Shown here piece after piece: positions 18,001 through 21,000 of a stretch of 49,569 nucleotides of DNA. Source of the DNA: a virus (taxonomy: Duplodnaviria; Heunggongvirae; Uroviricota; Caudoviricetes); the IMG/VR virus record IMGVR_UViG_642791630_000009, one strand, 5' to 3'. Position numbers: made by a program. Positions within the stretch are counted from its first letter, which is position 1, and every line of letters begins with the position of its first letter.

Positions 18001-21000
18001 CCTACTTTATTTCTGTATTTCACCGCTATTATGGCTTCCCGCCAGACAGATATGTATCCAGGCAAGGGCTTGATTATTGATTTTCATCTGATTATTATTT
18101 TTTGACCCAGCCCTTTAGCTCAGTGGTGAGAGCGAGCGACTCATAATCGCCAGGTCGCTGGTTCAAATCCAGCAAGGGCCACCATCACATACCGCCATTA
18201 GCTCATCAGGAAAGAGCGCCAGCTTTCGAAGCTGGTTGCGCGGAGTTCGGGTCCCCGAAGGCGGTCCATTATCTGTATCCTGCGTTGTTAGCTCAGCCGG
18301 ACAGAGCAATTGCCTTCTAAGCAATCGGTCACTGGTTCGAATCCAGTACAACGCGCCACACTTATTTTCCCTGGCTCGCTTTTGCGGGCCTTTTTTTTAA
18401 ATGTCTCACAATTCAGGCGGTTGACTGTTGTCTGGTTTGCGGGGAGTTTGTTAAAAGAAACTGGCATGGTGAATCCCCCTGTGCGGAGGGGCAATCAGCG
18501 AGTAGGTATATGGGATAATCGCGGATTCAGGTGCTGGTACTGAATTCACCGGGAGGCACCCGGCACCATGCAATGGCACATAGCGCCACTCTCCAGCCCC
18601 TCTCCGGAGGGGCTTTCTTATGGACAAAAAAAGCCCGCGCAGGGAGACGCGGGCGGCAAGGAATAAACAACAAAACGTGAAGTAATATTTCAGCTGGCGA
18701 ATAATATCCGACAGTAATCACTCTGCGCAATAGCGCGGCCTTTTTCGTATTGCGGGCTGTTGTCTCTCTTCTGCCATTGTCCTGTAACTTCCGGACTTCA
18801 GCCCGCTCCTCATTTTACTCACAATATTATCCCGGCCGGGAGGATTCATGGCATTTAAACACTATGATGTTGTCAGGGCGGCGTCGCCGTCAGACCTTGC
18901 GGAAAAGCTGACACACAAACTGAAAGAGGGCTGGCAGCCATACGGCGGACCGGTTGCCATTACGCCGTACACACTGATGCAGGCGGTGGCTATTGAAGGA
19001 GATCCACAGGTCGGCCCTTCATCTAAGCCGGACTGGTTCTACGTGGTTGTGCTTGCCGGACAGTCCAACGGCATGGCCTACGGTGAAGGGCTTCCGTTAC
19101 CGGATTCTTACGATGCTCCGGATCCGCGCATTAAACAGCTGGCGCGCCGCAGCACGGTAACTCCGGGTGGAGAGAGTTGTACGTATAACGACATCATTCC
19201 GGCCGACCACTGCCTGCATGATGTGCAGGATATGAGTACGCTGAATCATCCGAAGGCAGACCTGAGCAAAGGGCAGTACGGCTGTGTCGGCCAGGGCTTA
19301 CATATTGCCAAAAAACTGCTTCCGTATATCCCGAATAACGCGGGGATCCTGCTGGTACCATGCTGTCGTGGTGGTTCTGCATTCACCCAGGGCGCTGAGG
19401 GGACATTCAGTGCGGACACGGGGGCCAGCCAGGATTCGGCACGCTGGGGTGTGGGTAAACCGTTATATCAGGACCTGATTGCGCGCACTAAAGCTGCATT
19501 ACAGAAGAACCCGAAAAATGTGTTGCTGGCGGTGTGCTGGATGCAGGGAGAGTTTGACATGAGCGCCGCCACCCACGCACAGCAACCTGCGCTGTTTACA
19601 GCCATGCTGACACAGTTTCGTGCTGACCTCTCCGTGTTTAACGCGCAGTGCCATGGTGGCAGTGCTGCAGATGTGCCGTGGATTTGTGGTGATACGACGT
19701 ATTACTGGAAAAATACATACGCTACCCAGTACGACACCGTGTACGGCGGGTATAAAAACAGGGAGAGTGAGGGCGTTTATTTTGTGCCCTTCATGACAGA
19801 CGGTAACGGCGTCAATACCGCCACTAACGCGCCGGCAGAAGATCCGGATATTCCGGCATCAGGATATTACGGTGCGGCATCGAGAACGAATGGAAACCAG
19901 GTATCATCAAACCGCCCGACACATTTCAGTTCATGGGCGCGCAGGAGCATTATTCCGGATCGTCTGGCAACCGCTATTCTGAACGCAGCCGGGCGCACCT
20001 CCGCCTTCATCAGTGGTAAGGCACCGGAAATCAAACCCTCGCCCGGCGGCAACACGCCATCGGGTCCGTCTGCAGATACGTCCGTTCGCACAATCTCCCT
20101 GCTGCCGGCAGCCGGAGAGGCTGCTGCGCAGGGCTGGAGCATTAAGGATGGCGGAATTCAGTTGTCAGATGGTGTATTTAAGATCACCAGGCAGAGCAAT
20201 AAAACCTGGTCCCTGACGCATCCGGTGGATGACGCAATTACCCTGCTGACACAGGGCGGCAGACTGAACTGTAAGTTCCGCCTGTCAGGCGCACTGACCA
20301 ACAATCAGTTCGGGCTGGGGATTTATCTGTATACGGATGCTCCCGTTCCTGATGGTGTGGCGATGACGGGTACCGGTAATCCGTTCCTGATGTCGTACTT
20401 CACTCAGACCACTGACGGCAGAGTGAATCTGATGCATCACAGGAAAGCCGGAAACACGAAGCTGGGGGAGTTCGGCGATTACGGTAACGACTGGCAGACG
20501 CTGGAGCTGGTGTTCACCGCCGGCAGTGCCACGGTTACTCCGAAACTGAATGGAGTGGCTGGCCCGGCATTCCAGGTTATAAAAGACAGTCTGACACTGG
20601 GACTGAATGCGCTGACGCTGACGGATGTTACAAAAAATGCAGCGTATGGCGTTGAGATAGAAAGTCTGGTGCTGGAGATAAATGCACCGGCAGCATAATA
20701 AAAAAAGAGCCAGCGACTGACCTGAAAGAAGACGCTGGCTAAAAGGCCTTATATGTTTGTAGAGACTTATTTTTCACAGACAGCAATGATGCCTGTCAAT
20801 ATATTATCAATATGCGGATTGAACCGCCCCGGAAATCCTGGAGACTAAACTCCCTGAGAAAGAGGTAAACAGGATGACTAAAAATACTCGTTTTTCCCCC
20901 GAAGTCCGTCAGCGGGCGATTCGTATGGTTCTGGAAAGTCAGGATGAATATGACTCACAGTGGGCGGCAATTTGTTCCATTGCCCCAAAGATTGGCTGTA

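Follow-up and report, generated by a model that had tools for sequence, protein, structure and literature searches.

We identified the locus as the late-operon accessory ('moron') segment of the defective lambdoid prophage Sp4/CP-933M, which has the layout of an Stx2a phage without stx2AB, and we give this assignment a probability of about 90%. The window, the whole 49,569-nt stretch analyzed here, matches prophage Sp4 of E. coli O157:H7 Sakai at 100% identity over 18100–18900, and EDL933 (CP-933M) and more than 500 genomes likewise over 15300–20750. Hundreds of complete genomes, obtained independently, contain the identical region, which rules out an assembly artefact. The gene order is Q, a CPBP gene, PR'/tR', psrA, ileZ-argN-argO, a terminator, a convergent small RNA (sRNA) dyad and nanS-p; the Sakai annotation here reads prophage Sp4, ileZ1/argN1/argO1 and ECs1087/ECs1088. 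From Q to nanS-p, our findings did not differ from Sp4/CP-933M, which is integrated next to yccA and has psrA, the tRNA trio, nanS-p and IS629 in common with the window. Earlier annotations or publications on O157:H7 Sakai and EDL933 already cover the prophage, the tRNAs, psrA, nanS-p and the sRNA dyad; as a discovery, the locus matters little, and its value is that of a worked example. It illustrates two points: an intergenic gap beside a virulence cargo slot can look 'empty' and still encode conserved regulatory RNAs, and the stx position is a modular junction at which unrelated cargo shares one right edge, formed by the 5' end of the STnc100 module.

The original prediction of an empty toxin slot between the tRNAs and nanS-p held up. 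Searches of the whole window with the A and B subunits of Stx1 and Stx2 returned a best E value of 0.21 (tblastn), and the stx1 and stx2 cassettes gave no match at E ≤ 0.01 (blastn); stx is absent not only from the gap but from the entire window, which lacks the stxA and stxB pair located between late promoter and lysis genes in Stx-converting phages. The tRNA–nanS interval runs from 18359 to 18847 (489 bp) rather than from 18370 to 18847 (478 bp) as first delimited. An alignment with Stx phages, which had been proposed as a check, was carried out with the Stx2 phage VT2-Sakai and matched both flanks. On the left, the tRNA region up to 18399 aligns at 92.9% with sequence upstream of stx2A; on the right, 18402–18900 aligns from 41 nt past the stx2B stop codon into nanS-p at 74.6% overall, with the last ~125 bp near-identical. 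Between the points that correspond to 18399 and 18402, VT2-Sakai has ~1,330 bp more, made up of stx2A with its leader and of stx2B. Since the left homology stops at 18399 and the right homology restarts at 18402, the stx2AB cassette is cleanly absent. These breakpoints derive from explicit local pairwise alignments; a three-way MAFFT alignment had misplaced the large gap. At the junction corresponding to the stx2AB site of Stx2 phages (18399–18403), the window reads AAATG, whereas in VT2-Sakai the cassette is flanked left and right by ATCTG (3668–3672 and 4998–5002 of the VT2-Sakai locus L002). The ATCTG repeat was rejected as a deletion or insertion scar, as AAATG matches it at 3/5 letters, too weak a likeness to decide polarity.

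The surrounding backbone is of the Stx-phage type, as had been proposed. All three tRNA genes of the predicted trio (Ile2, Arg and Arg, 18109–18358, plus strand) were recovered by ARAGORN and Rfam alike: an ileZ-type tRNA-Ile2 with anticodon CAU (18109–18184, 66.3 bits, annotated tRNA-Ile/ileZ1), an argN-type tRNA-Arg (UCG; 18192–18268, 42.9 bits) and an argO-type tRNA-Arg (UCU; 18282–18358, 70.1 bits). CAU, UCG and UCU stand in 933W-type order, followed by a terminator, at the 92.9% identity to VT2-Sakai given above. Two stem mismatches can be read from the sequence of the argN-type tRNA, which scores below the Sp5 copy (54.8 bits), and the ileZ-type tRNA has an A1.C72 mismatch that the Sp5 copy lacks. 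In tRNA-Ile2 of the ileX/ileZ type, C34 of the CAU anticodon is converted to lysidine by TilS, after which the tRNA reads AUA. The CAU gene is annotated as tRNA-Ile by PGAP (EDL933) and in Sakai, and its Ile2 charging and AUA reading are predicted. The intrinsic terminator behind the cluster (18373–18398, plus strand; stem 18373–18390 plus T8; terminator scan) is conserved in Stx2 phages, as seen in the VT2-Sakai alignment. A literature search in a limited collection returned nothing relevant on Nil3/Lahn2 or on ileZ/argN/argO.

Antiterminator Q, which had been placed beside the tRNAs, is actually located 2.3 kb upstream of them (15396–15776, plus strand; Pfam Phage_antitermQ PF06530, E 8.7e-52). 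It is a short form of ~123–126 aa, annotated as antiterminator Q in EDL933, with 79% identity to VT2-Sakai Q over 121 aa, a shorter length and a different C-terminus. Q is separated from the tRNAs by the gene of a CPBP protease, the predicted PR'/tR' leader, a TrmB-like pseudogene and psrA. The CPBP (Rce1-like) intramembrane protease gene (15922–16746, plus strand; Pfam Rce1-like, E 1.4e-19, and EDL933 annotation) has a GC content of 37.8% and separates Q from PR'. A PR'-like late promoter with tR' leader and terminator was assigned to 16828–16910 (plus strand) by homology to the segment directly 3' of Q in 933W/VT2-Sakai: 16827–16909 matches 2923–3004 of the VT2-Sakai locus at 75% (blastn, E 3.8e-8), with TTTACG...TG(T/A)TAAGAGTGGTTA and a terminator conserved, and a terminator scan placed the tR' terminator at 16888–16903 plus T6. 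The predicted PR'/tR' thereby lies ~1 kb 3' of Q with the CPBP gene intervening, whereas the 933W type has it directly after Q.

Downstream of tR', the TrmB-like pseudogene precedes the tRNAs, as does psrA (ECs1087/ECs_1087; 17367–18080, plus strand; Pfam HTH_18/HTH_AraC and Sakai annotation), which encodes an AraC-family prophage regulator of T3SS/GAD and is named psrA (Sp4) in PMC13502914. With psrA, the segment carries cargo 5' of the tRNAs. The idea that the tRNAs decode rare codons common in cargo genes stood for part of the cargo: ATA, AGA, AGG and CGA together amount to 54.6 per 1000 codons in psrA, 76.2 in pch and 78.1 in stx2A versus 10–26 in structural genes, but to only 17.8 in the NanS-p gene.

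The downstream gene is a nanS-p sialate O-acetylesterase, as predicted (ECs1088; ORF 18848–20698, plus strand, 616 aa). Its product has the three-domain NanS-p architecture, with DUF1737 (residues 3–49), a SASA/SGNH core (SASA, 66–262) containing the GQSN serine motif within LAGQSNGM, and a C-terminal lectin-like domain (DUF6645, 467–577; all three by Pfam). Residues 60–379 match the NanS structure PDB 3PT5 (E 2.5e-120) and residues 421–613 the NanS-p C-terminal domain PDB 6YP6 (E 1.4e-29). The defining activity of NanS-p proteins is esterase activity on Neu5,9Ac2. According to a review, every tested EDL933 nanS-p allele gave an active esterase, and activity is likewise predicted for the CP-933M allele. 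The protein is 96% identical to NanS-p of Stx1a phages and 54% to that of Stx2a phages.

The interval between tRNAs and nanS-p had been described as containing only hairpins. This description does not apply: the hairpins are terminators of an STnc100 sRNA (18435–18625) and of a convergent minus-strand sRNA, and both RNAs were detected experimentally in Sakai. The plus-strand RNA is EcOnc05 of Sakai Sp4 and matches the STnc100 family at 138 bits versus a gathering threshold of 47 (Rfam RF02076), over the full length of the covariance model (positions 1–206/206). Its Hfq peak maps to 18496–18604 and its terminator to 18595–18614, and the published Northern probe falls exactly on 18493–18527. An Hfq peak and a ~222-nt Northern band have been reported for EcOnc05 in Sp4 (Tree et al. 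2014, Table S2), a size that disagrees with the 191-nt Rfam span. No consensus sigma-70 promoter for EcOnc05 was found on the plus strand at 18359–18460; TTGACT at 18421 was rejected as its promoter, being without a credible −10 element. The convergent Hfq-bound RNA EcOnc08/EcOnc21 (18626–18791, minus strand) was located from published peaks at 1179938–1180010 and 1180016–1180101 on Sakai and is ~271 nt on Northern blots (Tree et al. 2014, Table S2). A terminator scan gave it a terminator stem at 18654→18633 plus T7; the RNA is antisense to the nanS-p leader, and its 5' end may lie further right than 18791. Expression of both RNAs refers to published data mapped onto the window, which is identical to Sakai Sp4 here. 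The Sp4 coordinates of Tree et al. 2014 were transferred with an offset of 1161310; the EcOnc05 probe sequence, used as an anchor, showed no coordinate discrepancy at Sp4. At Sp5, the coordinates of Tree et al. 2014 are ~142 nt below NC_002695.2, which makes mapping by number only unsafe. A third plus-strand terminator-like hairpin lies in the nanS-p leader (18723–18746; terminator scan), and matches to Stx1a phages start at ~18723.

Read differently, the interval would be a non-functional spacer holding terminators only, with the Rfam match and Hfq cross-links reflecting hairpins of read-through transcripts. Four terminator-like hairpins do explain much of its structure, a search for a convincing sigma-70 promoter of the plus-strand RNA found none, both RNAs could be pieces from the 3' part of the tRNA/late transcript and, according to a review, EcOnc05 and EcOnc08/21 are without known target or function. 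We nevertheless consider a mere spacer very improbable. The covariance match is full length, and scores of 107–208 bits were obtained in five other phages despite sequence divergence. Discrete ~222- and ~271-nt bands and strong Hfq-CRAC peaks were recorded in Sp4 (Tree et al. 2014), and the homologous positions in Sp5, Sp10 and Sp17 encode AsxR and AgvB, which are functionally proven (Tree et al. 2014; a review). Tree et al. 2014 also list Sp4 as one of eight prophages in which convergent sRNAs lie 3' of PR', a statement repeated in a review. The sRNA module is, moreover, kept beside nanS-p whatever the cargo: STnc100 precedes nanS-p in Stx2, Stx1, Nil3 and JLK-2012 loci, with an AsxR or AgvB-like RNA convergent to it.

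RNAs of the AsxR/AgvB type are 51–60-nt minus-strand sRNAs with a conserved ~42-nt 3' region, convergent to an STnc100-type sRNA. EcOnc08/21 was considered as a member and placed outside the family because the AsxR and AgvB models (Rfam RF02703/RF02702), both of which match Stx2 and Stx1 loci, gave no match in 18340–18900 even at E ≤ 10; at ~271 nt, it is also a longer RNA.

In 933W/VT2-Sakai (Sp5), the order is Q-PR'-tR'-ileZ-argN-argO-stx2AB-EcOnc27/AsxR-nanS-p-S-R-Rz. The window shares with it the Q family, a homologue of the PR'/tR' leader, the tRNA trio, the terminator, the STnc100 sRNA, a convergent sRNA and nanS-p in the same order, but it lacks the ~1,330 bp of stx2AB at 18399–18403, has the CPBP gene splitting Q from PR' and the TrmB pseudogene and psrA between tR' and the tRNAs, and encodes EcOnc08/21 instead of AsxR and a NanS-p only 54% identical. 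Its lysis cassette is inverted, with an IS between it and nanS-p. Like the Stx1a phages Sp15, H-19B and Stx1_14040, the window has STnc100 upstream of nanS-p, a 96% identical NanS-p and homology in the last ~125 bp of the leader, and EcOnc42 of Sp15 is a listed homologue of EcOnc08/21. The Stx1 phage examined differs in having stx1AB and an AgvB-like convergent sRNA, and no tRNA trio was detected in it within ~2.4 kb upstream of stx1A. JLK-2012 (O55:H7) and the Ecol_AZ161 prophage, two relatives that also lack stx, share the order of STnc100 and then nanS-p. Unlike the window, JLK-2012 carries tciAB at the slot position and has tRNAs for Asn, Thr and Gly; in the Ecol_AZ161 prophage, the slot is filled by a DUF3927 gene, and iraM replaces the convergent sRNA.

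The junction position is modular, being occupied by stx2AB, tciAB, a DUF3927 gene or nothing, always directly 5' of the STnc100 module. The insertion points coincide, at 18402 for stx2AB, ~18394 for JLK-2012 tciAB and 18394 for DUF3927. A junction query (18282–18640) was covered to at least 80% at one place in 1,746 of 5,426 complete genomes (about a third), a count to which genomes with a match broken up by a DUF3927 insert of ~640 bp also contribute; O145, chicken and pig isolates are among those with an unbroken copy.

The lack of stx most likely reflects an allele of this slot that is old and widespread, rather than a recent deletion from an Stx2 phage. A microhomology deletion, or else an insertion with duplication, could likewise account for the nucleotide-exact collinearity with VT2-Sakai and the ATCTG repeat. 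Sp4/CP-933M could descend from an Stx2-converting phage that lost stx2AB, either by precise short-repeat deletion or because homologous exchange with a co-resident prophage replaced the segment from the tRNAs to nanS-p by an allele without the toxin genes. Such a loss is compatible with the gene order, with flanks collinear on both sides and a junction that corresponds to the nucleotide, with ATCTG at both cassette ends in VT2-Sakai, and with the resemblance of Q to its Stx2-phage counterpart and the presence of a PR' leader homologue; Nil3, Stx2-phage-like from Q to argN and window-identical from argO, shows that segment exchange happens. We judge this descent unlikely, however. The flanks diverge from VT2-Sakai by 7% (left) and about 25% (right), so any stx loss would be ancient. 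In addition, nanS-p is of the Stx1-phage and not the Stx2 type, no stx remnant is present in the window, and about 900 records, non-O157 and non-STEC isolates among them, contain the same uninterrupted junction with ≥99% identity. Since other phages have unrelated cargo in the slot, its empty and filled states are alleles that can replace one another.

An stx-less allele of the Sp4 type might, tentatively, act as a resident recombination template, such that exchange would erase stx from an Stx2 prophage, or reciprocally install it, without phage excision. Homologous exchange would be possible because the tRNA trio and the STnc100/nanS-p module are common to co-resident Stx phages. Nil3 (AM051322), which is also without stx, is 100% identical to the window over 18359–18801 but has a 933W-type Q/PR'/tR' directly upstream of the tRNAs. 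It is 933W-like from Q through argN and Sp4-identical from argO, with the crossover between window positions 18280 and 18319, and on sequence grounds it looks like a product of such exchange. The chimeric structure of Nil3 hints that whole stx cassettes could be lost or gained through toxin-less alleles of prophages residing in the same host; if true, such exchange would be relevant to stx-negative O157 isolates in diagnostics.

Established lambdoid biology suggests how the segment would be transcribed. In the lysogen, tRNAs, sRNAs and psrA would be expressed from their own signals; upon induction, RNA polymerase modified by Q at PR' would read through tR' and four downstream terminators into nanS-p. 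For Sp4/CP-933M, we infer this Q-dependent read-through by analogy; it would start from a displaced PR' and involve a short-form Q. The lysis genes would be out of reach of Q-driven transcription, given that IS629 comes after nanS-p and that the S-R-Rz block has the opposite orientation. These genes lie on the minus strand between IS629 and ISEc8. IS629/IS1203 (IS3 family; 20820–22129, plus strand) interrupts the late operon directly after nanS-p and was delimited by its inverted repeats (20820–20844 and 22105–22129) and transposase domains; an ALIL frameshift pseudoknot was also matched in it. The copy in the window is complete, whereas that of EDL933 falls 237 bp short of it and carries a frameshift, and the Sakai annotation lists a partial IS. 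In having the complete element, the window agrees with strains such as TW14359 and SS52.

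The stretch is prophage Sp4 of E. coli O157:H7 Sakai, known in EDL933 as CP-933M. A 5.4-kb segment (15300-20750) was 100% identical to EDL933 and many further O157:H7 genomes, with at least 80% of it held by 531 genomes, and 18100-18900 was 100% identical to Sakai, where it is annotated as Sp4 with ECs1087, ileZ1, argN1, argO1 and ECs1088. The prophage adjoins yccA, and the EDL933 annotation contains the same genes. Because the tRNAs, psrA, nanS-p family and small RNA (sRNA) dyad of Sp4/CP-933M had been annotated or published before, these elements were already known. ARAGORN detected three tRNA genes in the whole window and no more, all confirmed by Rfam: ileZ1 (anticodon CAT, 18109-18184), argN1 (tRNA-Arg TCG, 18192-18268) and argO1 (tRNA-Arg TCT, 18282-18358). 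The 616-aa nanS-p open reading frame (ORF; 18848-20698) encodes DUF1737, SASA and DUF6645 domains; residues 60-379 match the solved NanS esterase 3PT5 and residues 421-613 the NanS-p C-terminal domain structure 6YP6. Both landmarks of the original prediction, the tRNA trio and the sialate O-acetylesterase, are therefore real. The interval between them starts at 18359 rather than at the proposed 18370 and, as predicted, lacks a toxin ORF: the largest ORF within 18359-18847 does not exceed 77 aa, and searches of the entire 49.6-kb window with the Stx1 and Stx2 subunits and both toxin cassettes returned no match and no stx remnant. Two of the tRNA genes carry stem mismatches absent from Stx2-phage copies, A1.C72 in ileZ1 (Rfam 66.3 versus 72.5 bits) and A6.A67 (acceptor stem) and A52.C62 (T stem) in argN1 (42.9 versus 54.8 bits for the Stx2-phage copy), and may be decaying.

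Local alignment to the Stx2 phage VT2-Sakai (Sp5; locus L002) gave 92.9% identity from just 5' of ileZ to 18399, including the post-argO terminator, and homology restarted at 18402, equivalent to 41 nt after the stx2B stop. The toxin position proper, between this terminator and the STnc100 sRNA, is therefore empty to the nucleotide. VT2-Sakai carries 1,332 bp between the two breakpoints, comprising the stx2A leader, stx2A and stx2B, whereas Sp4 lacks stx2AB and is otherwise collinear. The right flank, from 18402 into nanS-p, was 74.6% identical overall, with the final ~125 bp nearly identical. Aligning the interval to stx flanks, the check proposed with the original prediction, thus matched both VT2-Sakai flanks, with only the stx2AB stretch missing, and the empty toxin slot was borne out. 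A 5-bp direct repeat, ATCTG, lies at both ends of the VT2-Sakai cassette (L002 3668-3672 and 4998-5002), where the window reads AAATG at the collinear position 18399-18403; target duplication, microhomology or chance are candidate origins of the repeat.

The interval had been described as containing only hairpins, which understates its content. It encodes a full-length STnc100 sRNA on the plus strand (18435-18625; Rfam 138 bits, gathering score 47), and a terminator scan identified both its closing terminator (18595-18614, plus strand) and a strong minus-strand terminator facing it (stem 18654 to 18633 plus T7). Tree et al. 2014 (PMC4104026), who mapped Hfq-bound sRNAs in Sakai, reported convergent sRNA pairs 3' of the late promoter PR' at the moron (accessory cargo) site of Sp3, Sp4, Sp5, Sp9, Sp10, Sp11, Sp15 and Sp17. 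Their Table S2 lists three Sp4 peaks here: EcOnc05 (1179806-1179914, plus strand, Northern ~222 nt), EcOnc08 (1179938-1180010, minus strand) and EcOnc21 (1180016-1180101, minus strand), the latter two sharing a ~271-nt band. Converted by offset (window = Sakai - 1,161,310), these fall at 18496-18604 (plus), 18628-18700 (minus) and 18706-18791 (minus). The published coordinates agree with NC_002695.2 at Sp4 and run ~142 nt lower at Sp5; placing these sRNAs on the current Sakai record by coordinates alone is unsafe beyond Sp4. Because of this discrepancy, the EcOnc05 position was verified by sequence, and the reverse complement of its Northern probe matched exactly at 18493-18527. By converted peaks and probe match, therefore, the hairpins are parts of two sRNAs detected by experiment, namely their terminators and structured bodies. 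The minus-strand RNA falls outside the AsxR/AgvB family: models that match the Stx2 and Stx1 loci gave no match to it even at E<=10. EcOnc42 of the Stx1 phage Sp15 is its listed homologue, and the targets of EcOnc08/21/42 are not known according to the literature. A literature search found no function reported for EcOnc05; a link to the levels of fimZ and espA has been described for its Sp5 homologue EcOnc27/sRNA103, which is likewise annotated as STnc100. Zhu, Shabalina and Storz, in a 2026 preprint, independently noted STnc100 and PasD upstream of the sialate esterase and PasA/PasC between esterase and holin. The latter is the position of EcOnc52, another Sp4 Hfq peak of Tree et al. 2014, which maps to the nanS-p 3' end (20688-20765, minus strand) and is accompanied by a minus-strand terminator (20722 to 20708).

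STnc100 lay directly 5' of nanS-p in all five comparison loci (Rfam): VT2-Sakai (207.7 bits, with convergent AsxR), an Stx1a phage (190.7 bits, with a convergent AgvB-like RNA), Stx2_130296 (185.7 bits) and the stx-less Nil3 (138 bits) and O55:H7 phage JLK-2012 (107.1 bits). Cargo varies among phages, yet abuts one common point. The right end of stx2AB in VT2-Sakai corresponds to 18402; JLK-2012 carries tciAB in the slot, with homology to the window from ~18394; and in the non-O157 Ecol_AZ161 prophage (L009 2591-3824), 642 bp including a DUF3927 gene are inserted between the equivalents of 18370 and 18394. In Ecol_AZ161, iraM, encoding an anti-adaptor protein, replaces the convergent-sRNA region 5' of nanS-p, a layout common to many genomes. 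A junction query (18282-18640) was covered over at least 80% of its length at one place in 1,746 of 5,426 complete E. coli genomes, a count that includes the DUF3927-interrupted type; uninterrupted copies occurred in O157:H7, O145, and chicken and pig isolates. An stx-less slot is therefore ordinary.

The original prediction of an stx-negative relative, or a backbone without stx, came through its alignment test, the toxin cassette being absent at a collinear junction. Between its two variants we favour an old stx-less allele over loss (probability roughly 0.65), because the flanks are 7% and about 25% diverged from VT2-Sakai, nanS-p belongs to the Stx1-phage type, no stx remnant persists, the same junction spans many lineages and other phages hold different cargo at the same point. 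These observations equally count against deletion of stx2AB from an Stx2-type ancestor, which we consider unlikely, although the collinearity of the locus with VT2-Sakai is exact, the cassette there has ATCTG microhomology on both sides and a recombinant is on record. In that recombinant, Nil3 (AM051322; L003 4700-6337), Q to argN is near-identical to VT2-Sakai (2 mismatches in ~960 nt) and argO onward is 100% identical to the window, without stx, placing the crossover between the equivalents of 18280 and 18319; with one half VT2-Sakai-like and the other window-identical, flank-mediated exchange does occur.

Q (15396-15776; the short ~126-aa form, 79% identical to VT2-Sakai Q) is not next to the tRNAs, as had been supposed. 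It is followed in turn by an AT-rich gene for a CPBP-family (Rce1-like) protease (15922-16746), a homologue of the 933W/VT2-Sakai PR' promoter/tR' leader (about 16827-16910; E 3.8e-8) with conserved TTTACG ... TAAGAGTGGTTA plus terminator, a frameshifted TrmB-like gene and ECs1087, the AraC-family gene psrA (17367-18080). The PR'/tR' homologue is located ~1 kb 3' of Q, past the CPBP gene, so a moron separates Q from its putative late promoter. With psrA, which encodes a prophage-borne regulator of the GAD/T3SS cascade, in the late region and stx absent, the late-operon cargo is thus psrA, not toxin.

While this anatomy is directly observed, the working of the late region is proposed from established lambdoid biology. 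In a lysogen, the tRNAs, psrA and both sRNAs would be expressed independently; after induction, polymerase modified by Q and starting at PR' would read through tR' and further terminators (17216-17233, 18373-18390, 18595-18614 and 18723-18738) into nanS-p. The late operon then runs into a complete IS629 (20820-22129), which is intact in the window, TW14359 and SS52; the EDL933 copy is truncated, being 237 bp shorter. S, R, Rz and the PerC homologue pch (22292-22606, minus strand) lie on the minus strand between IS629 and ISEc8 (26308-28757), opposite in orientation to Q, nanS-p and the terminase genes, a layout (20820-28757) identical in many O157:H7 genomes. With IS629 after nanS-p and the lysis genes on the opposite strand, late transcription has no way to drive lysis, and the prophage is defective.

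The codons ATA, AGA, AGG and CGA together average ~11 per 1,000 across the E. coli genome. They reached 50.4 (an alpha/beta-hydrolase moron), 54.6 (psrA) and 76.2 (pch), with stx2A at 78.1 and structural genes at 10-26. The suggestion that rare codons decoded by the tRNAs are common in cargo genes thus holds for the first three and fails for nanS-p (17.8). Further Rfam matches were a DicF sRNA (4422-4473, minus strand), a sok antitoxin RNA adjoining hokD (13210-13384, plus strand) and the ALIL frameshift pseudoknot of IS629 (21155-21271, plus strand); the early region contains a RelBE toxin-antitoxin pair in the EDL933 annotation.
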